Positions 1 through 55,448 of a stretch of 55,448 nt of DNA are shown one piece after another (the stretch's first letter is position 1; every line of letters starts with the position of its first letter). The position numbers and the translations under genes are program-made. Source of the DNA: a virus (Duplodnaviria > Caudoviricetes); the IMG/VR virus record IMGVR_UViG_3300027747_000926, positions 1 to 55,448 of that record; one strand, given 5' to 3'. Below the pieces are notes generated by a model. That model ran no database searches. It was not told the origin of the DNA and saw only the letters and a list, made by a program, of their open reading frames with translations.

Positions 1-141
1 AACACATAGAGGGCTCGGAAGTTCTGAGATGCACCCTTCATGTTGAAGTTAACTGTCAATTCTTTGACGTATTTTGCAGCTTTCTCATCAGCCCAACCAT
101 TCTTAATAAGGACTTTAAACATAGCTAGGCGAGGCGCAGTT
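1..141. repeat. Terminal overlap, left copy (circular contig)
   Basis: Matches 55308-55448 except T15 vs G55322 (CGA/CGC, synonymous Arg on the minus strand). It lies inside a CDS that reads in frame across the junction. Confidence 0.97.
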
Positions 142-32842: not shown

Positions 32843-33076
32843 TTACTTCTTACCTAGGTCAAGTTGGAAGGTAATTGGCTGAGAATCTACTTCCATACGT
32901 ACATCGGATAGGTCAGGAAGGATCTTGCGGAGCAAAATTTCAATTGCTCGTACCTGAGTTGGGGTCAAATCTACTGCGCCATTGGCATGTCCAGTCAATC
33001 GGTTGATCAACTGAGCTGCTTGAATCTTTTTACGGGTGTCTTCGTCGTGGCGAATCTTCTTAATTCGTGCGGCCAT
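32843..33076 (-). CDS. terS: Terminase small subunit
   Basis: RKKIQAAQLINRL...TQVRAIEILLRKILPDL; immediately upstream of terL. Confidence 0.75.
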   Translation of the reverse strand: MAARIKKIRHDEDTRKKIQAAQLINRLTGHANGAVDLTPTQVRAIEILLRKILPDLSDVRMEVDSQPITFQLDLGKK

Positions 33077-33326
33077 TGTGTTCCTCTGCTTTATCGAACG
33101 CCTGCAAGATGGCTTTTGCCAATCTCATGCAGTCATCATGGGTTTTGAAATCGTTTAGATTGATTTCGGATTCAAAGTAATGCGGTTCTCCGTGGATATG
33201 GATTGCTCCCGTTAACAGCATGAGCTGAGGTGCGATCTGTTTAGATAAACCTTCTGGGTAAACCACAGAAATTCCACGTAATGATTCAAATTGATTTAAA
33301 AACTTCTCTAGTTCTTTGCCTGTCAT
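33060..33326 (-). CDS. Hypothetical protein
   Basis: 88 aa, overlaps the terS start. Confidence 0.55.
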   Translation of the reverse strand: MTGKELEKFLNQFESLRGISVVYPEGLSKQIAPQLMLLTGAIHIHGEPHYFESEINLNDFKTHDDCMRLAKAILQAFDKAEEHNGRTN

Positions 33327-33339
33327 AGCTTTTCTTAGT

Positions 33340-33414
33340 TGGTTGCGGGGGGTGGGGTCGAACCACCGACATCTGGGTTATGAGTCCAGCGCTCTTCCAC
33401 TGAGCTACCCCGCG
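33340..33414 (-). tRNA. tRNA-Met(CAT) with initiator-like acceptor stem and encoded CCA
   Basis: CGCGGGG TA GCTC AGTGGAA GAGC G CTGGA CTCATAA CCCAG ATGTC GGTGG TTCGACC CCACC CCCCGCA A CCA folds as a 75-nt cloverleaf. Confidence 0.92.
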
Positions 33415-33418
33415 ATTG

Positions 33419-33673
33419 TTAACATTTCCAGCGTTTTAGTGCAGCTGCTTTACGAGTTGGTTTACCGTTCTCATCTTTCATGGGGCCGGGCATGCCACCC
33501 ATCCGAGCGCAGAATGAATCCCGCCTTGGACCACCCTCAGGTTGTGGTGCTTTTAGGTTAGATCCAGTAGCGGCGTTGTATTTCGCTCGACCCTTGGCGG
33601 TAAGCCCAGCACCCTTGGATACGGGAAGCTTCTCGCCACGACCTACAGATAGGTTTACTTTTTTAGTTGCCAT
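33419..33673 (-). CDS. Small basic phage protein (DUF6321-like)
   Basis: GLTAKGRAKYN...RRDSFCARM...AALKRWKC. Confidence 0.7.
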   Translation of the reverse strand: MATKKVNLSVGRGEKLPVSKGAGLTAKGRAKYNAATGSNLKAPQPEGGPRRDSFCARMGGMPGPMKDENGKPTRKAAALKRWKC

Positions 33674-33689
33674 GATCTCTCTTTGTTAT

Positions 33690-34228
33690 CAGCAGATTGG
33701 TTGACAATATGTAGGGTAATCTGCACTTTGGTTGACAGTTTTGTACAGAATGAGAAACAAACTGCACTTTGGTTGACATGGCTTATAAATAAGTCATTAA
33801 GTAGATAATGAGTTATTAATGAATCATTCTTAAGCTGTTAACATACTTTTTTACGATTAACATACAGCGTGTTATAGGAATGTTATGTAGGTTTATCCTT
33901 TTTACATAACCTTACAAAATACCCCGATCGGGAATATTTTTATACATTTGCCTACTTTTTCATCAAAATTGCCCGTTCGGGAAACTTTTTTATTTACTTT
34001 GTTATCGTCGCCAAATTTACTTGGCTAGTGTCAGCTGACCTTTTGCCCAATCGCCCGGCAACTCAATAGTTATATGGCGCAATCATGCAAACATGAGACA
34101 TCGTTGTCCGAAATTTGTATATCTTTTTCAACCTATAAGTAACAAATTTGTTAACAATCTAATACCTATAGGTTGTAAAACTTTACAAAAAAATATTTTC
34201 ACTTTACAAACACACCCCCATAGGGGAA
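33690..34228. repeat. Non-coding array of multiple distinct palindromes and short repeats
   Basis: CTGCACTTTGGTTGACA x2, AATGANTCATT-like x3, CCCGWTCGGGAA x2, ACCTATA x2, ACTTTACAAA x2 and several single palindromes (see findings). Confidence 0.8.
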
Positions 34229-34231
34229 AAA

Positions 34232-34402
34232 TTATTGGTCCAGCGTAGTACTAGCCAATACAACCTGCGGCGAAGTTTGCTCAACGATCTTTAAAGTGAG
34301 CTTACTAGGAGCCGCACCACTCAAAGTTAAGCGTCTCTCTAGCAAAGTAATACGCGCTTCTAATGTAGCGATACGTATCAATAGCGATTCGTTATTAGTC
34401 AT
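34232..34402 (-). CDS. Small coiled-coil protein (56 aa, not in ORF track)
   Basis: MTNNESLLIRIATLEARITLLERRLTLSG... with a heptad pattern; RBS is weak. Confidence 0.5.
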   Translation of the reverse strand: MTNNESLLIRIATLEARITLLERRLTLSGAAPSKLTLKIVEQTSPQVVLASTTLDQ

Positions 34403-34658
34403 ATATGAATGTGATGAGTTAGGTAAAAAAATTAGATTGAAGACCCGTGTGTGTGAAGGTAATACAGTGGAGCCTCAACCCCCCAGTGTTGCACTTCGTG
34501 GTCCCGTGCCACCCCTGTTAACTATCAGGGTTCTAACCACTAAAGACAGTTCAACTGATCGGTAATCCGTAGCTCAACCCTGTATCTATTAGGTCAGAAG
34601 GCTATCTGTGACTAGCTTGTGACTTTCCTTCGATAACTTCTCCCTCAGTTTGGGTATC

Positions 34659-34698
34659 AGCGTGTCCCTCTTTTCTTCCTACGGAAGGGGACAGCGCT
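34659..34698 (+). promoter_or_regulatory. Bulged hairpin element H1 upstream of the first early gene
   Basis: TGTCCC-tctttt-CTTCC-tac-GGAAG-GGGACA. Confidence 0.6.
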
Positions 34699-34759
34699 TA
34701 TGTGGTGTTGATCAACTCTTTCATTTCATTGACTTTTTTCCCACTGACTAGGAGCAAAC

Positions 34760-34900
34760 ATGCCTACTTATCAAGAGTATCTATATCACGCAGCTAAACA
34801 GGGTTTTCAACCTTGGTCTGAACCTACCTTCAATGCATTACTTAAAGCTCGGTTTAACCCGATTACTTCTGAATACATCAGAGGAGGTAAACATGCTTGA
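34760..34900 (+). CDS. Small early protein (46 aa)
   Basis: AGGAG RBS; MPTYQEYLYHAAKQGFQPWSEPTFNALLKARFNP... Confidence 0.65.
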   Translation: MPTYQEYLYHAAKQGFQPWSEPTFNALLKARFNPITSEYIRGGKHA

Positions 34901-34976
34901 GCTTATCTCTCACGTATTCATCGTTGTATCTGCTGTAACTGCTGTTGTTGCTTTGTATCTCTCTAAGGATTTCTAA
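34893..34976 (+). CDS. 27-aa single-TM peptide
   Basis: GGAGG RBS; MLELISHVFIVVSAVTAVVALYLSKDF. Confidence 0.55.
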   Translation: MLELISHVFIVVSAVTAVVALYLSKDF

Positions 34977-34990
34977 GTCCTTTAACCAAC

Positions 34991-35030
34991 GGTTATTTCC
35001 CTCTCTCCTTCTACGAAGGGGGAAACAACC
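34991..35030 (+). promoter_or_regulatory. Bulged hairpin element H2
   Basis: TTTCCC-tctct-CCTTC-tac-GAAGG-GGGAAA, preceded by AACCAACG. Confidence 0.6.
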
Positions 35031-35078
35031 TCTTCTTTCTTTTTTAACTACGTCTTACCTTTTACTAGGAGAATTACT

Positions 35079-35414
35079 ATGTCTACTATCACTGCTAAAC
35101 CTGCTTCACCTGCTCAAATCAAACGTATTGGCTATGCCGTTGAGTATGGTCTCTTGCCTGCCGACTTTGTTGTTCCTGGCGATTCTTACGCTTGCTCAGG
35201 GATTATCGGCAACTTACCCGCTAGTAAGCGTGACAAACAAGCGTTGATTGACGCTGGTGGTTCTGTTAAACCCAAGATGACAGCACGTGAATGTGAACGT
35301 GCCATGTTGGTTATTAAGTCTGTGAATGCTATCGATGCTTCAGGTGTTAAATCTGAGGCTGTGATTGCAGCTATCCAAGAACTTCGTAAAGAGTTCTTCC
35401 GTAAGCAGTCTTAA
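35079..35414 (+). CDS. Early hypothetical protein
   Basis: AGGAG RBS, 111 aa, two PAS-x-x-Q/D modules. Confidence 0.75.
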   Translation: MSTITAKPASPAQIKRIGYAVEYGLLPADFVVPGDSYACSGIIGNLPASKRDKQALIDAGGSVKPKMTARECERAMLVIKSVNAIDASGVKSEAVIAAIQELRKEFFRKQS

Positions 35415-35418
35415 TACA

Positions 35419-35465
35419 TAGGCAGGCATGAGGCTAACTACCTTGTGTCTGCCTAACCTTTTTTT
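35419..35465 (+). terminator. Probable terminator hairpin
   Basis: TAGGCAGGCATGAGG / CCTTGTGTCTGCCTA stem followed by a T run. Confidence 0.6.
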
Positions 35466-35467
35466 AT

Positions 35468-35672
35468 CAGGGTTACTGCGGTATCCGATCGGATGTTCTT
35501 TCCGTGCCTTACGACTGAGATTGCAGTGAACGGTCTGGCGGGTGTAACCAGGCCAGACGGTGAACCAATCTCAGGAAGTAATCCTGTTGTCTAGTTTCCC
35601 CGCGAATGAATAGGTAGCTCCCTAGCTGTAACGACATCCTCACTTGTGAGGTGGAGTGAAAGCGTATGGGGA
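35468..35672 (+). ncRNA. Candidate structured RNA
   Basis: Nested stems CAGGGTTACT/AGTAATCCTG, CTGAGATTG/CAATCTCAG and GTCTGGC/GCCAGAC, plus a second domain. Confidence 0.4.
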
Positions 35673-35724
35673 GCAGCCAGTGAATGAGTGGGTTTATCCA
35701 GCTGTATATCAATCAGGAGGTGTT

Positions 35725-35901
35725 ATGTGTTTCCCTAAAGAGTATTACGCATTACTTAATGATCTCAGAGAGTCAGGTGAGATCAATATGTTTGCTGCTG
35801 GTCCTTACTTGCAGTCTGAGTTTGGATTAGATAAGCAAGAGGCCAAGCGTGTAGTTCTGCATTGGATGTCTACCTATAAACAACATCAGGAGGTTGCATG
35901 A
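35725..35901 (+). CDS. Small protein, DUF5049-like (start reassigned to ATG 35725)
   Basis: AGGAGG RBS; LRESGEINMF motif. Confidence 0.7.
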   Translation: MCFPKEYYALLNDLRESGEINMFAAGPYLQSEFGLDKQEAKRVVLHWMSTYKQHQEVA

Positions 35902-36110
35902 GAACTTATCAATGTTGTCAGGCTAAATTCTATCCTCTGGACTTTTGTAATACATACATCAGGCTAAAGGATTTGAAAGATCTCTTTGACTTCAAACGAG
36001 AGATCAACCCTAAGGGTTATGTCCTTTGGGTTAAGCGTTATCCATACGATCTGTTTAATGTATGTGCTGGCGGAACCTCTGTTCGCTACACGGTGAAGGA
36101 TCAATCATGA
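35898..36110 (+). CDS. Hypothetical protein
   Basis: ATGA overlap and AGGAGG RBS. Confidence 0.6.
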   Translation: MRTYQCCQAKFYPLDFCNTYIRLKDLKDLFDFKREINPKGYVLWVKRYPYDLFNVCAGGTSVRYTVKDQS

Positions 36111-36199
36111 TCAATCAATACTTTAAACAATGCAGTATCTGCGGCAAGCCTGGTGTTAGCCGTTGTCATCAATGTTCTAAATACATAAGGAGTAATTAA
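36107..36199 (+). CDS. 30-aa CxxC..CxxC micro zinc-finger protein (not in ORF track)
   Basis: MINQYFKQCSICGKPGVSRCHQCSKYIRSN, coupled at both ends (ATGA and TAATG). Confidence 0.55.
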   Translation: MINQYFKQCSICGKPGVSRCHQCSKYIRSN

Positions 36200-36441
36200 T
36201 GCATCTTATCGAACATAAAGCAGTAGCCTGTTACCTATCTGACTGGAATCCAAAAGCTAGTTACGACCAGATCATTGATGCTTTGAGATCTAGCCCTCGT
36301 GAACATGGCTGGATTGATGCGCATGACATCAGCGTTTGGTATCCATTTGAGAACGAGTTCTTAGAAAAGGTAGCGGACTACATCGAGCAAGAGTTTTCAT
36401 CTCTTACTGTAATTTTTAACCATTTAAAGGAGCAGTCATGA
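36199..36441 (+). CDS. Hypothetical protein
   Basis: AAGGAG RBS, 80 aa. Confidence 0.65.
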   Translation: MHLIEHKAVACYLSDWNPKASYDQIIDALRSSPREHGWIDAHDISVWYPFENEFLEKVADYIEQEFSSLTVIFNHLKEQS

Positions 36442-36764
36442 ATCTATCTCAATTTACAGGTACTGAACAATGGTATCGCCATCCCTTTAGTAAGGTTACA
36501 TATACCGATGGGGTTAAGTACTTTGCTGATCAAGCGGGCGCCTATTGGTTTCTAGATATTGCTGTTTGCCTGCCAATGGAATTCCCTAACGAAAAGTTCT
36601 ACTCTGTTTGCCTTGATGTATCAGATGGTAAAGCTAAGCTCGTTGTCGATGATGGCAACGATAACGTACTCATGAATAAGGACATTGACTTTACTGACTG
36701 TCCCAATGGCGAGTACCGTTTCTTTCTAACCAATGATGTTTTGATGCTTACTTCGGAGTACTAA
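36438..36764 (+). CDS. DUF6876-like protein
   Basis: LSQFTGTEQWYRH...YTDGVKYFADQAGAYWFLD...IDFTDCP...LMLTSEY. Confidence 0.8.
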   Translation: MNLSQFTGTEQWYRHPFSKVTYTDGVKYFADQAGAYWFLDIAVCLPMEFPNEKFYSVCLDVSDGKAKLVVDDGNDNVLMNKDIDFTDCPNGEYRFFLTNDVLMLTSEY

Positions 36765-36766
36765 TC

Positions 36767-36940
36767 ATGTCTAAATTCAATGAAGACTTACTCGAAGAGT
36801 TGTACGAGCTAAAGACTTACATCCCTGTACCAGCTAGAGCTTTTGCTCTGGCATCAGAGGCTAAAGAAGATGACTACGAATGTATGTCTATCTCAGACGC
36901 CGCTGATTTAATCATTGCACTATCTCAAGTAAAGGAGTAA
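36767..36940 (+). CDS. Small acidic protein (57 aa, not in ORF track)
   Basis: GGAG RBS; MSKFNEDLLEELYELKTYIP... Confidence 0.6.
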   Translation: MSKFNEDLLEELYELKTYIPVPARAFALASEAKEDDYECMSISDAADLIIALSQVKE

Positions 36941-36942
36941 TC

Positions 36943-37176
36943 ATGCAACCCAGTATATTAGATCCCCGCTTTAAATATGTACCCTCAGCTAAGACCAATA
37001 TCGCTAAGACTTTTAAAAGAATCAAGCGCGAACTTGCGTCTAACTATATCAGCAATGTTGATAACGCTTCACAAATACACATATCTTCTGCAATGTTAGG
37101 TGCCGCAGATGAAGATGAACTTGTGGAGTGTCAGCGTTTGCTACGTGACGATATGTTTTTTAACTACCCTTACTAA
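36943..37176 (+). CDS. Hypothetical protein
   Basis: SILDPRFKYVPSAKTNIAKTF; AAGGAG RBS. Confidence 0.65.
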   Translation: MQPSILDPRFKYVPSAKTNIAKTFKRIKRELASNYISNVDNASQIHISSAMLGAADEDELVECQRLLRDDMFFNYPY

Positions 37177-37184
37177 GGACAACC

Positions 37185-37517
37185 ATGAAACCTAAATTTA
37201 TTGCAGATTTAGAAACCCGCATTAATGAATCCATGAATAGCATTCGTGCTATCAAAGGAGAAAAGTTTGCGGCTGCTACCCACTGCTTATTTCGTGGAAC
37301 CCACGCCACATCCAACCTGAATCTCCTGCTAAGCCATTCTGACATTGATGCATCTATCCGTGCCAAGATGACTGACCAGTTGACCAGCTGCATGTCTACT
37401 CATATGAATCTGATCGTTAACCTTGGCGAGTTAAATGATGACGATGTTCTTGAGATGATGAACTGGGTTGATGTCCTACATAAACATGTTCATACCGCAA
37501 TGGAGGAGGCATTATGA
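37185..37517 (+). CDS. Hypothetical protein
   Basis: 110 aa helical, AAGGA RBS. Confidence 0.65.
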   Translation: MKPKFIADLETRINESMNSIRAIKGEKFAAATHCLFRGTHATSNLNLLLSHSDIDASIRAKMTDQLTSCMSTHMNLIVNLGELNDDDVLEMMNWVDVLHKHVHTAMEEAL

Positions 37518-37834
37518 GTTGGCATAACGCTTTCGAACCCTGGGAAATTTATGAATTTACCTCTGAAGTAAATGAATTTATCAGATCATTTGGGTTTAAC
37601 ACCGTTGTTGACGATGACGGTGACTGTTCTTGGATTGCCTACATTGAAGATGAGAATGGCGATGACATCTACGACAGAGATAACGGTAGTGAATGGACAG
37701 AAATTGACCGGTATTTACCTGATGATTTGCTGGCCCTGCTAAACGCTGTTCAAGACTGGAGTAACCCAGCTAGTCGTATCTTTAAGAAACGAAAAACCGT
37801 AGTAGGTGCTATGGCTATCCTTCCCCTGCCTTAA
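37514..37834 (+). CDS. Acidic hypothetical protein
   Basis: Asp/Glu- and aromatic-rich core, GGAGG RBS. Confidence 0.65.
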   Translation: MSWHNAFEPWEIYEFTSEVNEFIRSFGFNTVVDDDGDCSWIAYIEDENGDDIYDRDNGSEWTEIDRYLPDDLLALLNAVQDWSNPASRIFKKRKTVVGAMAILPLP

Positions 37835-37847
37835 TCATGTCCATATA

Positions 37848-37904
37848 TATCAGTAATGGTGATACATGTGCATAGTTAACGCTATTTTATTAGTAATAGT
37901 AACA
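37848..37904. promoter_or_regulatory. Two putative 17-bp operators upstream of the amidoligase operon
   Basis: TATCAGTAATGGTGATA (37848-37864) and TATTAGTAATAGTAACA (37888-37904). Confidence 0.5.
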
Positions 37905-37936
37905 CAGTTGTTTGCTTTTAATAGTCATCAACCAAC

Positions 37937-37974
37937 GTCTATCGCCTCTCTTTCCTTTAGGAAAGGCGATTGAC
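37937..37974 (+). promoter_or_regulatory. Bulged hairpin element H3
   Basis: ATCGCC-tctc-TTTCC-ttta-GGAAA-GGCGAT, preceded by AACCAACG. Confidence 0.6.
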
Positions 37975-38003
37975 TTTTCTTTTTCTCAACCTCAGGAGGT
38001 TTT

Positions 38004-39503
38004 ATGTCCAGTAAATTGTATTTTTATGCAAGAAAACGGGTGTATCGAGATGATATGGGTGGCAATGAGTTCGTCCGTATCCTCGTAAAGCGTGTCCTTA
38101 AATCAGTAGCTCGGTCTACTGGCGGTAGGATTCACACCAACCGTTGGCTCAGGTTAATCAATGAACTAGCAGCTGCTCACCCAACAGATGGTGAAGGTCA
38201 GAAGTTTATGGAAAACCTGACAGCCTATGTCATGTCATTTAAAAAGACTCATCCATTAACAGTGGTTCGGATGGCCTTGATGCTTGACATTATTAAAGGT
38301 CGTGTATTTACCCGTGAAAATGATTCGTTTGATTACGGCGCATTACTTCAGTCTCACTTAACCTTGTTTGAAACAGTCAATGATGTATCTTGGATTGATT
38401 CTGTTGGCGTAAAAATGGGCATAGATAGAGCTGGTTGCGGTCACTTTGCTATGGTAACTAACACGTTGTTTGGCGATGATGACAGCGTTACTGCTAGATC
38501 TACTGTATGTTCGCATTGTACAAACCAATTAATAGATGATGGCACTCGTCAAATGGCTAGTGATAGCACGCTAATACTATCTAAGTATGCAGTATCTTAT
38601 CTAGATCCAAGCAATCATATACGTATCGCTGATCGACGCAGGGATTACCTTCGTCAGTTAGATGATGGCCGCTGGGTTCACATTGACTGGACTCCATATC
38701 GCGGCCTGGTTGCTGGCTACCACAGTAGCAAGTCTAAAGGGTTTGACGTCATTGATAGCCCTTGGTTTAGACAGAATCGCCGTGCCTTTGGTCTTGAGTT
38801 AGAAGTTCAGGTGACATCTGGCTCTGCAAACTTAGATGCAATGGCTGGCCGGGTTCATGATCTGTTTAATCCTAACGGTGCAGTTGGTGAGTACTGCTTC
38901 TTCGAGCGTGATGGTTCTATTGGTCATGGCTTTGAGATTGTTACTCAACCAGCAGGCATGGACATACACCGAGATAAGTTTGCATTGTTCTTAAACAATC
39001 CTGAAACTAAAAAAGGTATGCGTTCTCATGAAGGTGGTAGCTGTGGTTTGCACATACACGTAGGTAGACAGTACCTTACGCAAGCTCAGATCTTTAGAGT
39101 TCAATCCTTTCTCAACGATGTCAGAAACGAAGGGATTATTCGTATGATTGCCCGTCGTTATGGTGCTGGTTATTGCAGGGTTAAACCTGAGATGGCTAAG
39201 TTCACACCTTACAACAAGCAAAACGGAGATCGTTACGAGATGCTGAACATTCAGAACAGAGATACCGTTGAGTTTCGTATCTTCAGGGGTTCACTGCGTT
39301 ATGAATCTGTGATGGCAGCTCTTGAGTTCTGTAATGCGCTGCTTACTTTCTGTCAGCCAGGTGAGGTGTCATTCACCCAGTTCAATGCTGTTGGTTTTAA
39401 GACTTACATTCAGAGTCAATCAATGAAGCAAGACACTAAGTTCTTGCGTAGTTATTTACGCATGAGTGAAGACACCGACAACGAAAGGCAGGTTGCTGCA
39501 TGA
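38004..39503 (+). CDS. Putative amidoligase (COOH-NH2 ligase fold) with long N-terminal extension
   Basis: FGLELEV, ERDGSI...FEIVTQP, CGLHIHVG, RYEMLN and TVEFRIFRG. Confidence 0.88.
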   Translation: MSSKLYFYARKRVYRDDMGGNEFVRILVKRVLKSVARSTGGRIHTNRWLRLINELAAAHPTDGEGQKFMENLTAYVMSFKKTHPLTVVRMALMLDIIKGRVFTRENDSFDYGALLQSHLTLFETVNDVSWIDSVGVKMGIDRAGCGHFAMVTNTLFGDDDSVTARSTVCSHCTNQLIDDGTRQMASDSTLILSKYAVSYLDPSNHIRIADRRRDYLRQLDDGRWVHIDWTPYRGLVAGYHSSKSKGFDVIDSPWFRQNRRAFGLELEVQVTSGSANLDAMAGRVHDLFNPNGAVGEYCFFERDGSIGHGFEIVTQPAGMDIHRDKFALFLNNPETKKGMRSHEGGSCGLHIHVGRQYLTQAQIFRVQSFLNDVRNEGIIRMIARRYGAGYCRVKPEMAKFTPYNKQNGDRYEMLNIQNRDTVEFRIFRGSLRYESVMAALEFCNALLTFCQPGEVSFTQFNAVGFKTYIQSQSMKQDTKFLRSYLRMSEDTDNERQVAA

Positions 39504-39624
39504 GTATCAGAACAGATGCAAAAGTTTGGACAAATCTCACCGAGGCTGAGGCTTCATCTCTCATCAGTTGTTTAGTGGCTAATCGTATTAGCTATGCTAT
39601 TTTAAATTAAGAAAGGTAATAATT

Positions 39625-40656
39625 ATGTGTATATTAATTCACCATCCAGTAGGTTCTGTATTAACTGACGCTCACTTTGAGGACTTCTATGATCGTAATC
39701 CTGATGGTTTTGGCGCCATTGTTAACAACGCTCATGGTGTAAATGTCATCAAGCATGTCGGTACATTAGAAGAAGTTCAACAGTTATATCGTGACCACGT
39801 TATGGGTTTTGATGCGGTTATCCATATGCGCTGGCGTACTCACGGCGATGTCAATCTAGATAACTGCCACCCTTATGAGGTTGTTCCTGGCATGTGGATG
39901 TCTCACAATGGGATACTTAGTACGGGTAATGCAGCTGATCAAACTCGATCTGATACTTGGCATTACATTCAGAACTATCTGCGACCTTTGCTGCTAGAAA
40001 ATCCAGAGCTTATTCATATACCAGCATTTCAGGCTTATGTTGGTAGCCATATTGGTTACAACAATAAGTTTGGCTTTATGACAGAGGATGGTCGTAGCGT
40101 CATCATCAATCGCAGTGCTGGTATCGAGCATGAAGGTGTGTGGTTTTCTAATACCTATGCTTGGACTCCTCATAAGTTTGGCTACAGAACAGCGTATCAG
40201 TATGGTTCATCACCTAATTATGCTACGCAAACTACGTATGCCAAGCCTACCACCCAAGCTGGTTTTGACTTTACCAAGCCAGCCAAATACCAAAAGCCTA
40301 AAGCTAAATCCAAGACAGCTAAGAAAGCTACTACCAAGAAATCTATAGCCAATGCTATAGGAAAGATCAGTGAAGATTCTTACAAGAGAATCATTCGATC
40401 TTGCTTTAATGAGATTGAGTTGGATGGATTTCACGGCGCCTTGCGCTGGTGTACTGACAATCCAATGAAAGCTATGCACTTTATCTATAACGGTATGCCT
40501 AGCGAAAATCCTCAGGAAGTTTCTGACATGGTAAATGAGACGCCTGATTTAGCTGCCGACCACATCATGGAGATCTGGGATATGTATGGCGAGGACTTAG
40601 CTGAGATGGCTGGCATTCAACAATCTTTTACAGGAGTTAATTACTATGATATTTAA
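39625..40656 (+). CDS. Class II (Ntn) glutamine amidotransferase
   Basis: Cys2, NPDGFG, HMRWRTHG, NCHPY, HNG and SDT. Confidence 0.9.
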   Translation: MCILIHHPVGSVLTDAHFEDFYDRNPDGFGAIVNNAHGVNVIKHVGTLEEVQQLYRDHVMGFDAVIHMRWRTHGDVNLDNCHPYEVVPGMWMSHNGILSTGNAADQTRSDTWHYIQNYLRPLLLENPELIHIPAFQAYVGSHIGYNNKFGFMTEDGRSVIINRSAGIEHEGVWFSNTYAWTPHKFGYRTAYQYGSSPNYATQTTYAKPTTQAGFDFTKPAKYQKPKAKSKTAKKATTKKSIANAIGKISEDSYKRIIRSCFNEIELDGFHGALRWCTDNPMKAMHFIYNGMPSENPQEVSDMVNETPDLAADHIMEIWDMYGEDLAEMAGIQQSFTGVNYYDI

Positions 40657-40975
40657 TCAGAGAATCAATCGTACCTTTGCTGAATTTAACGCAAACGACT
40701 ACGACTTTAATGAGTTCAAGCGTGCCTTGAATCTTTCAAGGTCAGGCACTGACATTACTCTGGGCTATTCTGACAAGGTATTTTTTCAAATACCAGACAG
40801 TGTATTTAGATGTCAGACAGATGATCAGCAAAGGGTACTTGGCATTTCAACCAGTAGCTTTATGAAGTTTGCTATGTATGCATACCTTCAAGAGCTGGGT
40901 AAGGTCAATGACTTTATGAACTATGCCAAGCGTCATGGCTACTCGGTTCGCAATACTGCAAGTAGTTTCTACTAA
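40646..40975 (+). CDS. Hypothetical protein
   Basis: AGGAG RBS, overlaps the amidotransferase stop. Confidence 0.6.
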   Translation: MIFNQRINRTFAEFNANDYDFNEFKRALNLSRSGTDITLGYSDKVFFQIPDSVFRCQTDDQQRVLGISTSSFMKFAMYAYLQELGKVNDFMNYAKRHGYSVRNTASSFY

Positions 40976-41031
40976 ACCAATGGGGTTGGTATGCCTATGC
41001 GTATCAGCCCCGCTAATAAAGGAGTTGTTAT

Positions 41032-41202
41032 ATGTCTAAGTATAAATATTACCTCATAGAAAAAACCGTCTTACACGTAACGGTGGAAGCCAACGATCGT
41101 GATGAGGCAGATGAAAAGGTCGAAGGTATCTTGGAAGATGATCCCGACTGGGGTATGGGTGGCATGGAAGTTACCTATGAATTTGCGGGGGAGGAATCAT
41201 GA
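41032..41202 (+). CDS. Small acidic protein (56 aa, not in ORF track)
   Basis: AAGGAG RBS; ...VTVEANDRDEADEKVEGILEDD... Confidence 0.65.
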   Translation: MSKYKYYLIEKTVLHVTVEANDRDEADEKVEGILEDDPDWGMGGMEVTYEFAGEES

Positions 41203-41465
41203 ACGCAATCGAAGATCATGTTGAAGTATTCCAACGTAGGAAAGGTATGAAGGTTTACCTTGACACCGTTGATAATGGAACTCATCAGTATATTCACCTA
41301 TGCTTTGATGATGACCTTAACGAAACCTGTGGTGGCTATGTTTCAATCAAGCTTGATGACGATGGAGTTATCGTGGATATCATTAATGAAGGGGATGTTC
41401 TTAGTTCATCTTGGGTATCATATGATGAATTACTACCGCCATCCATGAGAAAGGAGTCTGTATGA
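41199..41465 (+). CDS. Acidic hypothetical protein
   Basis: 88 aa, coupled to neighbours. Confidence 0.6.
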   Translation: MNAIEDHVEVFQRRKGMKVYLDTVDNGTHQYIHLCFDDDLNETCGGYVSIKLDDDGVIVDIINEGDVLSSSWVSYDELLPPSMRKESV

Positions 41466-41737
41466 AATTTCTATTTATTCTTTTTGCATTGATCAGTCTG
41501 CAAGTTAACGCTAAAGCTATTGGAGAACTTCCCAATAACTCGGGTGGCAAGATCATATTTACTGATGATGTATGTCAGTACCACCCCGCTGCGAGAAGGG
41601 TTTATTCTTATAGCGGGACTGGTAATACTATGGAAGGATGCTGGTTTATCGAAGATGAAACAGTAGTTGTTCGCTACGAAGATATCAAGCAACCATATCG
41701 ATACCCTTTAAATAAAGTATTAACCCCATCTAAGTAA
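41462..41737 (+). CDS. Secreted protein with signal peptide
   Basis: MKFLFILFALISLQVNA signal peptide; two Cys. Confidence 0.7.
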   Translation: MKFLFILFALISLQVNAKAIGELPNNSGGKIIFTDDVCQYHPAARRVYSYSGTGNTMEGCWFIEDETVVVRYEDIKQPYRYPLNKVLTPSK

Positions 41738-43696: not shown

Positions 43697-45388
43697 CTAT
43701 CGGATGTAAACAGAAGAAAGTTCTGGTATGTTGAATTGACCTGAGTTCATATCCCACTCGAGCTTAGTCACACCTATCTGACCTAACCAGCGGCTGCGAA
43801 TCTTTTGAATATGAATCTCAGAATAGGCATACGGATCTGACTTATCTCTATGTACGGCAATGATGTTGTCTGCCTTATTAAAGAAGTGAGCCGAACCTGC
43901 TACGTCATAGCCTGTAGGTACTGGGTACTTGCCATCCATTCCCTTTTGCAACTTTGTTGGGTGCGCCACTAACCAAATGTGTACGTTAAATTCCCGTGCA
44001 AACCCACGTATTCTTGCTAAGAAATCTGAGACGTACTCAGTCTCGGAGATACCTTCCTTGCGATTGGTATGGGTGATCTCGTTATAAGGATCAACTATTA
44101 ATCCCTTCATGCCATAGCGTCTGACTAATAGCTTGGCTTTTGTCAGTAAGGAATCTAAGGTTCTGTCCTCAGGTAAGATAAATTTAAAGAACGCATTGAC
44201 CCACTCCTTAGCCTCAGCAAATTCCTCAGGTGACATCTTGTTGAGACGCTTGCCAATATACTTTTCCATCAGCTTAGTCGCGTGATATGAGACAGGCTGG
44301 TTCTCAGGTGAGCATACCCCGATGACCCAACTGTTGTGCTTGGTCAGGTTCATGGCTAAGGCATCGAGCCACTCAGATTTACCCATGCCTGGAACACCAG
44401 TTACCAGAGTCCACTGCCCCTCAGATGGGCGATAGAATTGATCTACGTTTTCCCAGCCAGTAGGGATGCCAACAGGTAGACCATCCTCATAGATAGTATC
44501 GAGTTCACTATTGAAATCTTCTAACTGATATACACCATCAACTGGATAGGGTTTTGCAAATGAGATGACATCACGGAGAATGTCAGGTCCGTGCTTAAGC
44601 AATGTGTCATTAGCATCCTTGCATCCCTCAGGCCACGTTACCCGCCAGCATCTATCCTTGCCAAGCCTTCTCGCAAGTTCCTCTTCTAATCTTTTGCCGG
44701 GTAGATCGTTGTCAACTGCAAGAACAAACTTCTCTACGTTCTCAATGAACGGATCTTCTACATCGATGTAGGTAAATTTATTTTCTAAGTTCTTTGACTG
44801 AGGTGTTGGCGCCCCATCAGGCACTGAAATGGCATGACGAAGACCAGCAACCTCAAGGGCTAGAGCATCGAACTCACCTTCGGTAATGATGGTGCATTTC
44901 GGATCGATGTCGTCGTACTTATACCAACACTTTTCTGCGCCCCCTTCTTGGGTGAAATATTTATTGCGATCACGGTACTTGACATTGACAACTACGCCAT
45001 CCTTAATGAATGGGAATGCCATGCAAGTCACCTCTTCCTCACGCTGAGGCATATAGTGCGTGGTCATTGTGATCTGGTTACGAGCTGCAACCTCAGGTGT
45101 AATACCTCTATCCGCTAGTACATCTAAACCCTTCTGTTCTAAGGGTGCGCTACGAAATTCTGGGCGACGATATTCCTTTTTCGCCGTGATTGGCCGCATA
45201 TAGTTTCCTTTTTTTATTGACCCTGACCAACCGCAATGCCAGCAGTTGTAGACACCAAGATCTAGGCTGACGTTCAAACAGGGGTATGATTTCTTTTTGC
45301 GTGTGTGTGAGCAATTAGGACAGATCGTCTTGATCTCGCCTGATGTTTGGTTTTTCACATCGATGTTAAGTTCACGCCAACTTTGCAT
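43697..45388 (-). CDS. Primase-helicase (T7 gp4/Twinkle-like)
   Basis: Zn finger CPNC..CWHC, TOPRIM ITEGEFDAL/DND/KDAND, Walker A GVPGMGKS, VAHP and GSAHFFNKAD. Confidence 0.93.
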   Translation of the reverse strand: MQSWRELNIDVKNQTSGEIKTICPNCSHTRKKKSYPCLNVSLDLGVYNCWHCGWSGSIKKGNYMRPITAKKEYRRPEFRSAPLEQKGLDVLADRGITPEVAARNQITMTTHYMPQREEEVTCMAFPFIKDGVVVNVKYRDRNKYFTQEGGAEKCWYKYDDIDPKCTIITEGEFDALALEVAGLRHAISVPDGAPTPQSKNLENKFTYIDVEDPFIENVEKFVLAVDNDLPGKRLEEELARRLGKDRCWRVTWPEGCKDANDTLLKHGPDILRDVISFAKPYPVDGVYQLEDFNSELDTIYEDGLPVGIPTGWENVDQFYRPSEGQWTLVTGVPGMGKSEWLDALAMNLTKHNSWVIGVCSPENQPVSYHATKLMEKYIGKRLNKMSPEEFAEAKEWVNAFFKFILPEDRTLDSLLTKAKLLVRRYGMKGLIVDPYNEITHTNRKEGISETEYVSDFLARIRGFAREFNVHIWLVAHPTKLQKGMDGKYPVPTGYDVAGSAHFFNKADNIIAVHRDKSDPYAYSEIHIQKIRSRWLGQIGVTKLEWDMNSGQFNIPELSSVYIR

Positions 45389-45441: not shown

Positions 45442-45805
45442 TTAGTGTAAACCCTTGTTTGCCCTATAGCAATAGGATGTAACAAGTTTTTTATTAGTAA
45501 TTATTAGGGTAAACAGAACCCCCTTTTCCCTTTGGGCGGGGGCATTGACCTGGATGTTTAGTAACAATATGTAACTAGTAATTATGTTTACCTTAGATCC
45601 GAACGTACCTCCCCTATCCTACCTAGAAAGAGAGGTTCGTTCAGCATGGGCTTTACCTTGAGTCCATTAGCACCCGACAGACTTTCACACTAGAGGTTCT
45701 ATCTTCCCCGCCTCTTCTCGCATTACAAGTGTTTATCCCGTGGCTCGAGTAACTACAAGAACTGACGCCACCGTTGTTGTACCCGTCCATCAATTCTTGG
45801 AAAGA

Positions 45806-45983: not shown

Positions 45984-46655
45984 ATGGAGGGTACAAAAAT
46001 GATCGAAAGATATATGGATGAACAGTCATTAGCCGATGCAAAGCGTCTTAAAAAACTATGGCTAGAAAAGAAAGATGAACTTCATCTATCTCAAGTCAAG
46101 GCTGCTAAAGAGTTCGGTTACAGTAGCCAAGGAGCAGTCTCACAATATTTAAATGGTAAGGCCGCATTAAACATGAGTGCGGTTGCTAAGTTTGCTCAAT
46201 TACTAAAGGTCAATGTTGCTGATATTTCTCCACGCTTTGGATCTATGGTTGCCAATCAAAAGCCCACCCCATTAGATAGCTATTGCGCCCCTGCCATAGG
46301 TTCTATTAATGGTCGTAATACCGACATCTGCCTAGACTGGTTTGCGTTCTCCAAAGGATTTCTGAAATCAATTAACTCCAATCCTGAGCATATCAAAACA
46401 GTGCGCCTAGACGATGGATCATTTAATGAATACCCAACTGGTACTTTGTTGATGGTAGATGACAGCCACCAATCATCCCCTAAGGATGGAGTCTATCTAA
46501 TGGAAATGAATGGCGGAATTGTGGCGCGCAGAATTCATGTGGTGTCAGATGTCATCACCATTTCTGGTGGGAAGAAAGATATCAAGGTCAGCGCAGATAC
46601 ATTTGAAATGCTACGTATATTAGCTAAAGTGATCTTAGTGTTAACCCCAGTATAA
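45984..46655 (+). CDS. cI: Lambda CI-like repressor (HTH plus degenerate S24 domain)
   Basis: DAKRLKKLWLEKKDELHLSQ...SQGAVSQYLNGKAALN parallels the lambda CI N-domain; the C-terminus is S24-like. Confidence 0.85.
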   Translation: MEGTKMIERYMDEQSLADAKRLKKLWLEKKDELHLSQVKAAKEFGYSSQGAVSQYLNGKAALNMSAVAKFAQLLKVNVADISPRFGSMVANQKPTPLDSYCAPAIGSINGRNTDICLDWFAFSKGFLKSINSNPEHIKTVRLDDGSFNEYPTGTLLMVDDSHQSSPKDGVYLMEMNGGIVARRIHVVSDVITISGGKKDIKVSADTFEMLRILAKVILVLTPV

Positions 46656-51672: not shown

Positions 51673-52746
51673 ATGAATATGTATAAGCGAGGTGATGTAT
51701 GGAATGCTTCTTGGTATGTAGATGGCAAGCGGTTTCGATACAGTTCAAAGACATCGGATAAGAATGAGGCGAGAGAGTTTTTCGCCAACCTGTATGCCAA
51801 GTCTTTGGATGTGCGTGGCATGGACAGTAAAGTCAGGCGCACGTGGATCGAAGCGGCAACTCGGTATATTGAAGAGCATCAGCATTTGAAGTCGATCGAT
51901 ACGTATGAGCATCAGTTTGCGTGGTGGAGTCAAGCATTTCACGCCGAGCGGATTGTGTACTTAGATCAGATTTCACCTGATGTAGTCAAAGATATTCGAG
52001 ATAAGGAGTTACAACGCCCTCTCTCACGTTGCAAGGACAAGCGTCGTAGTCCTGGTGATGTGAATAACAAGTTGTCTTTCTTGCGTGCAGTAGTGAATGC
52101 AGCTTGTCGTGAGTATCGCTGGATAGATGTGGCGCCTTTGTATCGGTTCTTACCGCATAACGGAGAGCGTCGCAGATGGTTAACTCCTACCGAACTCAAT
52201 CGTTTGTTACAAGCTTTGCCTGAACCCTACAGTTCGATGGCGGAGTTCTCGGTAGCAACGGGTTTACGACAGGCAAATGTTTTGGGTTTGCGCTGGGGTG
52301 ATATTGATCTTCAGAACAGGACTGCGACATTTAAGGATAAGGTCATGAAGAACGGAGAACCCTTCTCCATTCCTTTAAACCAAACTGCATTGACTGTACT
52401 GCGTCGCTGGTTAGGCAAGCATGAAGAGTTGGTCTTCCAAAGAAGTGATGGCAAGGAAGCAAAAGGTGTGCCATCAAAGACCTGGAGTACGGCAATTGCA
52501 AAGGCGGGAATTGATAATTTCCACTGGCATGACCTGAGACATACCTGGGCCAGTTTGCTGCGGCAGTCTGGCAAAGTAGATCTCAGTTTGTTGCAAGAGC
52601 TAGGTGGCTGGAAGAGTGCAAAGATGGTGCAGCGGTATGCCCATTTGTCAGTTGAACATCTGTCTTCTTCGGCGGACATTCTAGACAGTGTATTATCTGT
52701 GTCTGGACAAAAACCGCAGTTGGTTCAGATACAATCGAGCGCTTAG
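51673..52746 (+). CDS. int: Tyrosine integrase
   Basis: TGLR, K, HDLRH, GGW and RYAH catalytic residues; N-terminal arm-binding domain. Confidence 0.96.
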   Translation: MNMYKRGDVWNASWYVDGKRFRYSSKTSDKNEAREFFANLYAKSLDVRGMDSKVRRTWIEAATRYIEEHQHLKSIDTYEHQFAWWSQAFHAERIVYLDQISPDVVKDIRDKELQRPLSRCKDKRRSPGDVNNKLSFLRAVVNAACREYRWIDVAPLYRFLPHNGERRRWLTPTELNRLLQALPEPYSSMAEFSVATGLRQANVLGLRWGDIDLQNRTATFKDKVMKNGEPFSIPLNQTALTVLRRWLGKHEELVFQRSDGKEAKGVPSKTWSTAIAKAGIDNFHWHDLRHTWASLLRQSGKVDLSLLQELGGWKSAKMVQRYAHLSVEHLSSSADILDSVLSVSGQKPQLVQIQSSA

Positions 52747-53826: not shown

Positions 53827-54138
53827 ATGACAGCATTAACTGACGCTTATGCAAAGGCGCGCATCGAAGGACAGATGGCAGAAGACGAAGCTAAAGTCAC
53901 CATATCTCACATGAAAGTAGATCAACTACGTGAGGAATGGGTTAGCTTGATGGGGATGGTTGCGTACTACTCGAAACTGGAACGGTTGCTGTACTCCAAC
54001 CCCCGTAGCCAGTTCGATAAAGCAAGGGAATACTTAGAACTTATTGAAAAGAACCCTGATAACTGGGAAGCTATACAAGGTCTTATTCTTCTAGTTCAGG
54101 GGATGGTTGACTACGAGCCAAGCGACCAATCTTATTAA
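53827..54138 (+). CDS. Hypothetical protein
   Basis: 103 aa, convergent with and overlapping the end of the giant gene. Confidence 0.55.
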   Translation: MTALTDAYAKARIEGQMAEDEAKVTISHMKVDQLREEWVSLMGMVAYYSKLERLLYSNPRSQFDKAREYLELIEKNPDNWEAIQGLILLVQGMVDYEPSDQSY

Positions 54139-55448
54139 GGTTAGATCCGTCTGTGCCGTTAGAGATAATGGCATCACGGAAACCAGCCCTTAATGCGGCA
54201 TTGACCACTCGGTTCTGAATCAACTTCTCCTGCTCTGCCACCTTATTTCTGGCGGCAGTCTTGTAATCATCTGTGTATCTTGGGTTAGATTCAATAGCTT
54301 GTAGACCGATACGCATCTGTTTAATCATCTGATCTGCACCTGAGATGATGGCTTTTGCCCCGCCCAGATTAGGATGTTCAGTCATGATCTCTCTACGTCT
54401 TGCCTCAGATGTAGCTGGTGACATCATTTCACGGTACTTAGTCTGCACAACCTCAGCGGCATTGCGCATAGCTCCAGCATCGTAGCCCTCAGGGATTTTG
54501 GCTGTTAGGCGATCAACTAGTGGGATTGCCATATCCTTAGTCTTCTCACCTCTAGCTGCTTGAATCGTTATTCCCGCGCCCTTATAGAGTTCTGAGAATA
54601 GTCCAGGCAAGTAGGACTGTATGAAGTAATCTGCCTTGCTAGGGTTGATGTCTAAGATTCCACTACTGTATTGGCTACCTCCAGTAGCTGAGTTCAATCC
54701 TCTGAATACCCCAACTGAGATTGGATTGGCAGTCTTAAAGTTCATGTAAGCCTGAGCCTCTTTGACATCACTAAAGGCGCTATCACCCTTAGATATTGGG
54801 CCACCAAAGCGGTTCTCATTAGCGCCTAACTCATAGATAGGAACCAACGGTGAAGGCAGTATGGTTTTTAGTAAGGCGCCAGTCGTTGTCTTAGACTCAG
54901 CACCTGAGCCTACTGGGGCAAAAGAATCAAAGGCGACTGAGAGTACTCTGCCAGCAGCTTCTTCCGCTTTGAGCTTACCGCCCCATACATCAGCTAAGTA
55001 GTGACCCATAGCAAATGGTACGTTCCATCCATAGGCAATAGGGATAGCGCCGCCAGGAACATCAGGGGCAAATATCAAAGCAGTAGCTCTCTTGTAGTTT
55101 GGAATCATGTCTAGCTTATCAATGCCAGGCTTATCATCATCCTCGCCGCCGATAGCCCTAGCCATCATGTTGCCCATCATGCCAAGTACCATCCATACGC
55201 CAGCAGTAGCGGCAAACTGGTTGCTAGGTAAGAACTTAGCAATGCCCTCCTCACCCCGACTGTAGTTCTGGAACATACGGAAAGTACCTTGGATTGCTGG
55301 GTTAGCAAACACATAGAGGGCGCGGAAGTTCTGAGATGCACCCTTCATGTTGAAGTTAACTGTCAATTCTTTGACGTATTTTGCAGCTTTCTCATCAGCC
55401 CAACCATTCTTAATAAGGACTTTAAACATAGCTAGGCGAGGCGCAGTT
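54083..55448 (-). CDS. C-terminal part of the giant polyvalent protein (LPD38-like region)
   Basis: LTVNFNMKG, LYVFANPAIQG, IPIAYGWNVPF and NENRFGGPI; in frame with 1-6947 across the overlap. Confidence 0.85.
   Translation of the reverse strand, partial: TAPRLAMFKVLIKNGWADEKAAKYVKELTVNFNMKGASQNFRALYVFANPAIQGTFRMFQNYSRGEEGIAKFLPSNQFAATAGVWMVLGMMGNMMARAIGGEDDDKPGIDKLDMIPNYKRATALIFAPDVPGGAIPIAYGWNVPFAMGHYLADVWGGKLKAEEAAGRVLSVAFDSFAPVGSGAESKTTTGALLKTILPSPLVPIYELGANENRFGGPISKGDSAFSDVKEAQAYMNFKTANPISVGVFRGLNSATGGSQYSSGILDINPSKADYFIQSYLPGLFSELYKGAGITIQAARGEKTKDMAIPLVDRLTAKIPEGYDAGAMRNAAEVVQTKYREMMSPATSEARRREIMTEHPNLGGAKAIISGADQMIKQMRIGLQAIESNPRYTDDYKTAARNKVAEQEKLIQNRVVNAALRAGFRDAIISNGTDGSNLNKIGRLARSQPSPELEE
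55308..55448. repeat. Terminal overlap, right copy
   Basis: 140/141 identical to positions 1-141. Confidence 0.97.

Follow-up and report, generated by a model that had tools for sequence, protein, structure and literature searches.

The DNA stretch considered here (hereafter the window) comprises 55,448 bases and represents an entire IMG/VR virus record, IMGVR_UViG_3300027747_000926. It raises the question of what role is played by three imperfect hairpins, H1, H2 and H3, that sit in a rightward gene cluster (34760-41737), and whether they are read as DNA or as RNA. A preliminary description had proposed an undescribed cis-element, either a DNA hairpin promoter of the phage N4 type or a 5' RNA element. 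We found H1-H3 to be members of a conserved, hitherto undescribed family of structured leader elements outside Rfam. The proposal of a genuine, conserved cis-element absent from Rfam therefore stood, and its 5' RNA option fits the data, while the N4-type DNA hairpin promoter did not hold.

A family of covarying stem-loops ahead of start codons

All three hairpin sequences were located where they had been placed before, and they have a common fold, which runs from a basal clamp of 3-4 bp through a mismatch, a stem of 5-6 bp, a pyrimidine bulge of 4-6 nt on the 5' side and an upper stem of 5 bp to a loop of 3-4 nt. Segment by segment, the plus strand reads AGCG/T/GTCCC/TCTTTT/CTTCC/TAC/GGAAG/GGGAC/AG/CGCT in H1 (34659-34698), GGTT/A/TTTCCC/TCTCT/CCTTC/TAC/GAAGG/GGGAAA/C/AACC in H2 (34991-35030) and GTC/T/ATCGCC/TCTC/TTTCC/TTTA/GGAAA/GGCGAT/T/GAC in H3 (37937-37974). 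Outer stem, bulge, inner stem and loop had been recognised correctly in the preliminary description, while the basal clamp of 3-4 bp beyond the single mismatch had been missed. The predicted folding energies on the plus strand were -18.6, -17.0 and -18.2 kcal/mol for H1, H2 and H3, with z-scores of -3.4, -3.8 and -5.1, respectively, and none of 200 shuffled sequences folded equally well. In sliding-window folding the three were no energy outliers; since many windows in coding regions reach similar values (-15 to -23 kcal/mol), the energy alone is not unusual in this genome. What exceeds chance in H1-H3 is their common architecture, not their energy, and a strict descriptor (upper stem of 5 bp plus a short pyrimidine bulge) matched only these three sites in the window.

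Relatives for comparison were collected with a terminase search, which returned 166 related viral contigs; 80 loci were retained. The amidoligase encoded behind H3, used as single-protein query for related loci, retrieved no relative. Hairpin alignments made with MAFFT (A2-A7) were rejected, with bulge and loop gaps misplaced and pair counts in A2 no better than in slid controls. Because of this misplacement, a covariance model, R1, was seeded from two foreign hairpins of identical geometry (A8; L029:1410-1452 and L010:78-120), and the remaining sequences were aligned by Infernal. In 933 kb and at E<=0.06, R1 produced 43 matches, 43/43 on the gene strand, i.e. the plus strand of the window or its equivalent; H3 was scored with E = 0.0017, H2 with 0.043 and H1 with 0.22. 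A second model, R2, was rebuilt from these 43 matches, with H1 outside the seed. Applied to 956 kb of the window and related phage DNA at E<=0.1, it gave 54 matches, again all on the gene strand (54/54), with E-values of 1.5e-8 for H3, 1.1e-7 for H2 and 2.2e-4 for H1. No further match was detected by R2 on either strand of the 55-kb window. The elements so delimited span 34657..34700 (H1; supported by fold, R2 match and orthologues), 34989..35032 (H2; fold, R1 and R2 matches) and 37935..37976 (H3; fold, R1 and R2 matches, orthologues), all on the plus strand.

The family is confined to one gene cluster of one phage clade. All 51 R2 matches in the loci fall on the side of the terminase that holds this cluster, and complete related records carry 3, 2 and 1 copies, all within the same cluster; among 35 loci fetched via the family of g35079, the gene behind H2, the R2 matches were likewise on the gene strand (41/41). 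Members are single stem-loops of 38-46 nt with loops of 2-14 nt, the sequence of which is not conserved. The 5' pyrimidine bulge was called in all aligned distinct rows (43/43), its most frequent length being 3, and a pyrimidine-pyrimidine internal loop together with an invariant C-G-G / C-C-U base occurs across the family; a subclass with the upper stem TCAC...GTGA possesses a 3' purine bulge in place of the 5' one. An Rfam search of the window at gathering thresholds reported only a tRNA and a Betaproteobacteria-1 RNA, both elsewhere, and E-value searches of Rfam 15 with 34500-35120 and 37800-38020 returned chance-level matches only (best E 0.18).

Comparison with relatives by BLASTN and reading revealed orthologues of H1, H2 and H3 with stems altered yet complementary. 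Compensated changes such as CTTCC/GGAAG to TTTCC/GGAAA were present in H1 orthologues of eight loci (L003-L007, L010, L012, L013), and the H3 stem ATCGCC/GGCGAT is exchanged for CGCCC/GGGCG in relatives, the orthologues in L003 and L006 having entirely different stems. Over 43 distinct sequences, 96.1% of the cells were paired, against 74.4% in shuffled alignments (0/500 reached the observed value) and 54-69% in slid controls, and the covariation score amounted to 0.598 vs 0.213 (shuffled) and 0.07-0.15 (slid). Both sides vary in 10 of the 13 pairs, and in the basal part of the main stem C-G, G-C, U-A and A-U occur in comparable numbers. The clamp pairs are G-C in 40/42 cells (G3-C69) and 35/43 cells (G4-C68); the basal G-C pair hardly varies, nor does the flanking C...U, and both are therefore uninformative about pairing. 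The earlier claim of one architecture with differing, covarying stems was thus borne out, with H2 and H3 recovered by a model of foreign seed and H1 by one seeded without it, and the searches of relatives and of Rfam, suggested along with it, found the structure conserved in the former and no family in the latter. These stem-loops represent a structured-RNA motif family with good comparative support.

A Shine-Dalgarno (SD) sequence and an ATG were read directly downstream of all three hairpins, as noted before. The leader of H1 (34701..34759, plus strand) is composed of pyrimidine-rich CTCTTTCATTTCATTGAC, a T6 run and ACTGACTAG, with the SD AGGAG at 34750-34754, and is kept in six relatives. 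That of H2 (35033..35078, plus strand) is a G-poor pyrimidine spacer with AGGAG at 35067-35071, and that of H3 (37977..38003, plus strand) reads TTTTCTTTTTCTCAACC and has AGGAGG at 37994-37999. The start codons at 34760, 35079 and 38004 are located 59, 46 and 27 nt from H1, H2 and H3, respectively. When entire leaders were folded, the SD was often engaged by the CUCUUC tract behind the hairpin, which permits no conclusion because any CU tract can pair with GGAG. It should be added that ACTGACTAG (34743-34754 region), preceding the SD of the first gene, contains stops in two frames in the window, and that its counterpart in relatives (L010, L012, L013), TAACTGACTAG or TAACTAACTAG, has stops in all three frames before the ribosome-binding site (RBS). 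On their 5' sides H2 and H3 are abutted by the motif AACCAACG (34984..34991 and 37930..37937, plus strand), as had been stated; the window contains five copies of it vs 1.13 expected, a number reached in 0/100 shuffles, and variants of the form CAACCA(A/C/T)CG(G/T) adjoin many family members.

In the family as a whole, the next start codon, directly preceded by an SD, was found 21-60 nt (mostly 27-46) after the element in 40/40 elements with a usable call. The other three of the 43 are L036, where no start was found, and L013:2103 and L080, where calls at 379 and 148 nt were distrusted. Upstream stop codons occur at 1-317 nt from the element, and the position of the element is set by the next start codon, not by the preceding stop. 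Since H2 and several elements of relatives begin 1-12 nt behind a stop codon, there is no room for a promoter at these sites. Behind the clamp, T occupies position +1 in 44/45 and position +3 in 36/45 tails, the first 8 nt of which contain 4.8 T on average; according to position-by-position composition, a T/C-rich, G-poor spacer without a fixed 13-mer follows. Tails of the H1 class (TGATTGGG, TATGTGGT) have 2-5 T in the first 8 nt and no T tract, with the fold kept.

The genes behind the elements belong to few families: g35079-like, amidoligase, small membrane peptide, g34760-like and a small basic FDPxFKY protein. The tightest link is that to g35079 (35079..35414, plus strand), which encodes a conserved all-alpha protein of 111 aa. 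With the gene as the criterion of choice, the hairpin was present in 21/22 distinct regions upstream of its homologues, and R2 matched just upstream of the gene at 28/35 loci of the family; among the seven misses, six carry the TCAC...GTGA subclass by eye, the seventh being L114. For homologues of the amidoligase-like gene behind H3 (38004..39503, plus strand; PF12224 at 1e-06, phrog_2443) the hairpin was recognised by eye in 7/10 distinct upstream regions; the window's own two regions are left out of the upstream-region counts for both genes. The first cistron behind H1 (34760..34900, plus strand) is an open reading frame (ORF) for 46 aa with homologues in L010, L004 and L028. The window homologue of the FDPxFKY family (36943-37176) has no element in front of it.

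DNA hairpin or RNA element

The strict co-direction with genes, the position behind stop codons, an excess of G.T over A.C stem pairs on the plus strand (33 vs 8) and a contig from an RNA library favour plus-strand RNA, and we infer that the element acts as RNA and not as a DNA hairpin. Of the sampled words, 12% were present in one RNA run. Its five contigs, of depth 2-4, at which gaps are meaningless, all map within 34540-39223, and none covers 33300-34539. One of these metatranscriptome contigs spans 34540-34690 and thus enters H1 from upstream; RNA ends are not visible in contigs. H2 follows a co-directional ORF for a hydrophobic peptide of 27 aa (34893..34976, plus strand) and begins 12 nt past its stop codon. 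These two observations, that at H1 being the weak one, speak against the earlier statement that the hairpins "head" transcription units. By eye, no convincing sigma-70 hexamers were seen upstream of H1 and H3.

In the N4-type explanation, the template strand of the DNA would extrude a hairpin, and an injected RNA polymerase of the phage would recognise it. Such promoters are characterised by a stem of 5-7 bp, a loop of 3 nt whose centre is a purine, and base conservation at positions -11, -10, -8 and +1 (PMC4496689). The upper parts of H1 and H2 resemble them, having on the minus strand, as was correctly described, a 5-bp stem with a C-GTA-G loop, i.e. a small stem and a 3-nt G-N-A loop on the template strand upstream of genes; the H3 loop is the 4-nt TTTA. 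Loops of 3 nt in relatives (TTC, TAC, TGC) also read GNA on the minus strand, the distance of 21-60 nt to the ATG would suit a promoter, and the phage encodes a giant virion-type polyvalent protein (~2770 aa). Against this, a 3-nt loop with such a minus-strand reading is present in just 11/43 distinct members, H3 not among them, and the H elements are much longer, bulged and variable in the loop. Their stem bases differ between copies, in contrast to the conserved positions of N4 promoters (PMC4496689). H2 is situated inside an operon, 12 nt past a stop, the RNA-library contig runs into H1 from upstream, and the genome is that of a temperate phage (integrase, CI-like repressor, Erf). Furthermore, no virion RNA polymerase was found: PHROGs, Pfam, PDB sequence and six-frame PF00940 searches were all empty, in line with the preliminary description, the PF00940 search having given no match in control genomes either. 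The pieces of the giant gene (3-6947 and 54083-55447) had no PDB sequence match, in searches that a remote fold-level relative would escape, and were assigned to LPD38 alone in Pfam and to DarB-like and unknown families in PHROGs, without a polymerase domain. The N4 explanation is disfavoured for H1-H3 and appears to us hardly credible; the analysis thereby removes the more exciting but wrong idea that a phage lacking a polymerase of its own has N4-like hairpin promoters.

Possible functions of the leader stem-loop

We tentatively lean to a stem-loop in the mRNA leader that acts in cis and, via stability, translation or attenuation, sets the output of the cistron behind it. An imperfect stem-loop of ~40 nt would be transcribed within the mRNA as part of the leader of the following cistron, its modules being arranged in the order C-G-G clamp, pyrimidine-pyrimidine mismatch or internal loop, bulged G-C stem, small loop, C-C-U, G-poor pyrimidine spacer and SD. 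In terms of stability and translation, as we infer, the stable hairpin would delimit and shield the downstream mRNA segment at its 5' end and would insulate the unstructured ribosome-loading spacer from pairing with upstream sequence. Some copies may additionally terminate or pause transcription weakly. Hairpin, G-poor spacer and SD would together make up a compact module.

In placement, the SAS/ESAS sequences of cluster K mycobacteriophages come closest, for which a role in translation initiation is suspected (PMC3203893). These too contain an imperfect inverted repeat with variable spacer, occur in a single orientation upstream of the starts of a gene subset and travel with gene families across related phages, being absent from the host. 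They differ in that ESAS arms are 17 bp long with a consensus and are coupled to a conserved 13-bp SAS containing the RBS, whereas stems of the H family covary freely, only the CGG/CCU base and the pyrimidine spacer are kept and no conserved RBS 13-mer exists; host phylum and phage group also are not those of the H family (PMC3203893).

Several points weigh against a plain leader stem-loop or against the evidence on which it rests. The alignments used for pair counts were fitted to the model structure and are hence biased towards it, the MAFFT alignment gave no pairing signal above slid controls, and covariation comes partly cheap, because with a pyrimidine 5' arm and a purine 3' arm three out of four random combinations pair. 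As many as 17 of the 33 G.T pairs stem from one junction pair beside the bulge, and a strand-neutral hairpin parse counted 10 G.T vs 14 A.C pairs, the latter being uninformative because these pairs are mostly in spurious outer extensions. The RNA evidence amounts to five low-depth contigs from one metatranscriptome with possible DNA carry-over. The invariant G-C clamp followed by T at +1 (44/45) and on average 4.8 T in 8 nt gives the element the look of an intrinsic terminator, and a passive stabiliser would explain the conservation of bulge, internal loop and CGG/CCU base less well than recognition by a specific factor would.

The terminator-like features suggest a leaky or conditional intrinsic terminator, i.e. 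an attenuator, in the leader of each served cistron, which we regard as a possibility, albeit a doubtful one. The clamp and U/C tract would release some polymerases, the bulge and internal loop would tune this release, and the purine arm could form an alternative hairpin with the downstream pyrimidine tract. Apart from the near-invariant clamp (40/42, 35/43) and T-rich tails (44/45 at +1, 36/45 at +3), this would agree with the location of several copies 1-12 nt past a stop codon and with a terminator scan, which flagged an alternative hairpin at 35015-35035 formed by the H2 purine arm and CCTCTTC and followed by TTTCTTTTTT. Such alternative pairing is expected from composition alone, however, and the H1 class (TGATTGGG, TATGTGGT) lacks a T tract and keeps the fold. 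Where present, the tract is broken by C, and pyrimidines extend towards the SD instead of ending as a short U run. Bona fide terminators of the same genomes are long and perfect and run into T4-T7: the one behind g35079 (35419..35465, plus strand) has a perfect 15-bp stem and T7, and homologues of g35079 in relatives are likewise followed by long perfect hairpins with T runs. The H-family stems, G-C-rich and with G-C base pairs as in terminators and leader attenuators, are imperfect in comparison and have a conserved bulge and internal loop; an internal loop of 2-3 nt right above a 3-bp base should, by general knowledge, weaken termination. No element was seen at an operon end or the 3' end of a transcription unit, and the next start is only 21-60 nt downstream (40 usable calls). 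H elements do not appear to be generic terminators.

A more specific alternative, which we consider unlikely, is an RNA operator read by a dedicated factor, by analogy with nut/boxB and N, HIV TAR and Tat or put and RNA polymerase, which would put a small regulon under antitermination or under translational (auto)regulation. As factor one may think of RNA polymerase itself or of a phage protein, possibly that of the g35079 family or the small basic FDPxFKY protein; the family of the latter (FDPxFKY...RKRFKR) follows some elements and has no recognised relation to N. An operator would account for a shape that is conserved while stems change, with the 5' pyrimidine bulge (43/43), the pyrimidine-pyrimidine internal loop and the invariant C-G-G / C-C-U base, for the tight link to the g35079 family (21/22; 28/35) and for the recurrence before 4-5 unrelated gene families; the strong terminator behind g35079 is one that an antiterminated polymerase would need to pass. 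Other observations argue in the opposite direction. Among the cluster genes PHROGs (E<=0.01) revealed no N-like, Q-like or known RNA-binding family, nine of 11 having no family and two weakly matching a family of unknown function. The AF2 model of g35079 (pLDDT 88.8) matched no PDB fold (best E 0.93), and for the protein neither a Pfam or PHROG family nor a match from Atlas was obtained. Moreover, the loop sequence is not conserved, unlike that of boxB, the TCAC...GTGA subclass has a 3' purine bulge and not a 5' one, and at most three copies lie within 3.3 kb of one cluster, unlike the deployment of nut or put. A factor-recognised operator is nevertheless the most interesting reading that the data allow. 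If true, the hairpin would belong to an undescribed phage regulatory system, a rather improbable prospect at present, that switches an accessory, possibly anti-defence, regulon; its factor would recognise the CGG/CCU base together with bulge and internal loop, in the manner of Tat on TAR or N on boxB, and would act via antitermination at the terminator behind g35079 or via translational control.

Known antitermination elements were compared directly. The put, nut and rrn boxB-boxA elements are also bulged nascent-RNA hairpins in the leaders of phage operons or in rrn leaders. In HK022, one put site is located downstream of each early promoter and acts on the zinc-binding domain of the RNA polymerase beta' subunit. 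The H elements number at most three in one cluster, some of them 1-12 nt past a stop codon, and stand beside start codons. The put RNA is ~70 nt long and consists of two stem-loops in a V shape (PMC9378689), whereas the H element is one stem-loop of 38-46 nt, and the put analogy drawn in the preliminary description was not upheld. Two rrn leaders from Burkholderiales have boxA (TGCTCTTTAACAA and GATCTTTAACAA) immediately behind a hairpin, in the same order as the H hairpin and its pyrimidine tract. A boxA in the H tails was rejected, the best ungapped match being 6-8/12 in 43 tails (mean 7.2 vs 6.7 shuffled), and H-family loops are not boxB-like. An intramolecular triplex was discarded for its wrong strand polarity for a pyrimidine-motif triplex, and an integron attC-like site for the absence of inverted RYYYAAC/GTTRRRY boxes.

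The plasticity of the cluster brings up yet another explanation, in which hairpin and leader serve as a DNA homology patch for gene-cassette swaps, as in the T4-type PeSL idea, and have no role in expression. Orthologous elements indeed precede different genes: in the window the gene for the 46-aa protein, in L003, L006 and L012 one for a membrane peptide. A related contig from another metagenome (run X5) departs from the window precisely where the SD behind H1 ends (34754) and returns to it at 34888, the stretch between being replaced by 197 other letters; the same contig has unrelated replacements at 36038-36425 and 36769-37108, comprising entire small genes. These differences are cassette exchange at conserved leader sequence. 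Any conserved leader would show swapping at regulatory sequence as a consequence, and a homology patch explains neither the strict orientation and start-codon spacing nor stem covariation with changing sequence, which lowers homology; we consider it very unlikely. PeSL cassettes share with the H family a repeated stem-loop, SD and start before small accessory ORFs in a plastic region with varying neighbours, and have a sigma-70 -35/-10 promoter between stem-loop and SD (PMC4122927). The H-element spacer of 21-60 nt is pyrimidine-rich and without hexamers, and a promoter scan of the window listed none between hairpins and SDs. A PeSL cassette was rejected, there being no room for or sign of such a promoter.

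The element marks the starts of a few accessory genes in an uncultured freshwater temperate phage clade. It offers a handle on the control of a cluster in which nearly all genes are of unknown function and which also contains an amidoligase/amidotransferase pair.

The phage and the surroundings of the element

Bases 1-141 and 55308-55448 of the window are identical at 140/141 positions, and the record is classed as "linear"; the match is either a terminal direct repeat or a circular-assembly overlap. A unit of ~55.3 kb follows from it, and the ORF 3-6947 together with the 5'-open ORF 54083-55447 is therefore the single giant gene mentioned above, reaching across both ends. Judged by gene content, the phage is a temperate, tailed one, with an integrase (51673-52746) as temperate marker, a CI-like repressor gene (45984-46655), a primase/helicase (43697-45388, minus strand), Erf and an exonuclease. 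Terminase, portal and major head protein are encoded on the minus strand in a packaging/structural operon, from which the rightward cluster with H1-H3 diverges. This cluster contains small ORFs without known family, the amidoligase-like gene and a weakly amidotransferase-like gene.

The closest cultured phages have a terminase identity of <=47%, and Megablast of 34000-39500 against GenBank phages gave zero matches; the phage group is a large uncultured clade of freshwater temperate phages. A terminase scan of genome contigs identified two contigs only, from metagenome-assembled genomes (MAGs) labelled Actinomycetota and Burkholderiales. R2 had no match at E<=0.01 in the two whole MAGs and none at E<=0.001 in 151 genomes of the order of the Burkholderiales MAG, the latter a weak negative, with 42 candidates scored per genome and no known motif carrier included. 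The Betaproteobacteria-1 RNA of Rfam was matched over its full length at 45672-45797 (minus strand), with 68.5 bits where the gathering score is 49.4. The match, which hints at a betaproteobacterial host, occupies the gap separating the CI-like repressor gene from the primase/helicase operon, a gap that is likely to be part of the immunity region.

Behind H3, the amidoligase-like gene (PF12224) is followed by the gene with a weak class-II glutamine amidotransferase match (38004-40656, plus strand). The pair recalls peptide-modification or conflict systems and is the largest cargo behind a hairpin element. Upstream of the H3 orthologues in L006 and L003, at ~60-110 nt, are operator-like inverted repeats GTTAACAGTGTGC ... 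GCACAGTTAAC, of which the window retains the right half only, ACATGTGCATAGTTAAC, at 37834-37850. These repeats suggest a repressor-controlled promoter before the amidoligase unit.

Ahead of H1, a strongly conserved non-coding block, GACCCGTGTGTGTGAAGGTAATACAGTGGAGCCTCAACCCCCC, at 34440-34530 (plus strand), ~190 nt upstream of the element, is common to six relatives, and more distant relatives have a related block, CGCGTGCGTATTCCCCCGTAGATTCATAAG, ~70 nt ahead of their element. The block may be a promoter or another structured RNA. It belongs to a stretch of ~1 kb (33680-34650) with ORFs of at most 89 aa and no recognised gene, which also contains, at 33915-33990 (plus strand), the mini-hairpins CCCGATCGGG and CCCGTTCGGG, A-rich before and with a T run after, resembling small bidirectional terminators. 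At 33690-33785 (plus strand), between the packaging operon and the rightward cluster, TGGTTGACA occurs three times, two copies being GCACTTTGGTTGACA, with spacings of 31 and 41 bp; the copies, each with a perfect TTGACA, may be iterated regulator sites or tandem -35 boxes. Finally, a tRNA-Met gene (anticodon CAT; 33340-33414, minus strand) is situated between an 84-aa ORF (33419-33673) and an 88-aa ORF (33060-33326) and belongs to the leftward, packaging-side gene set.

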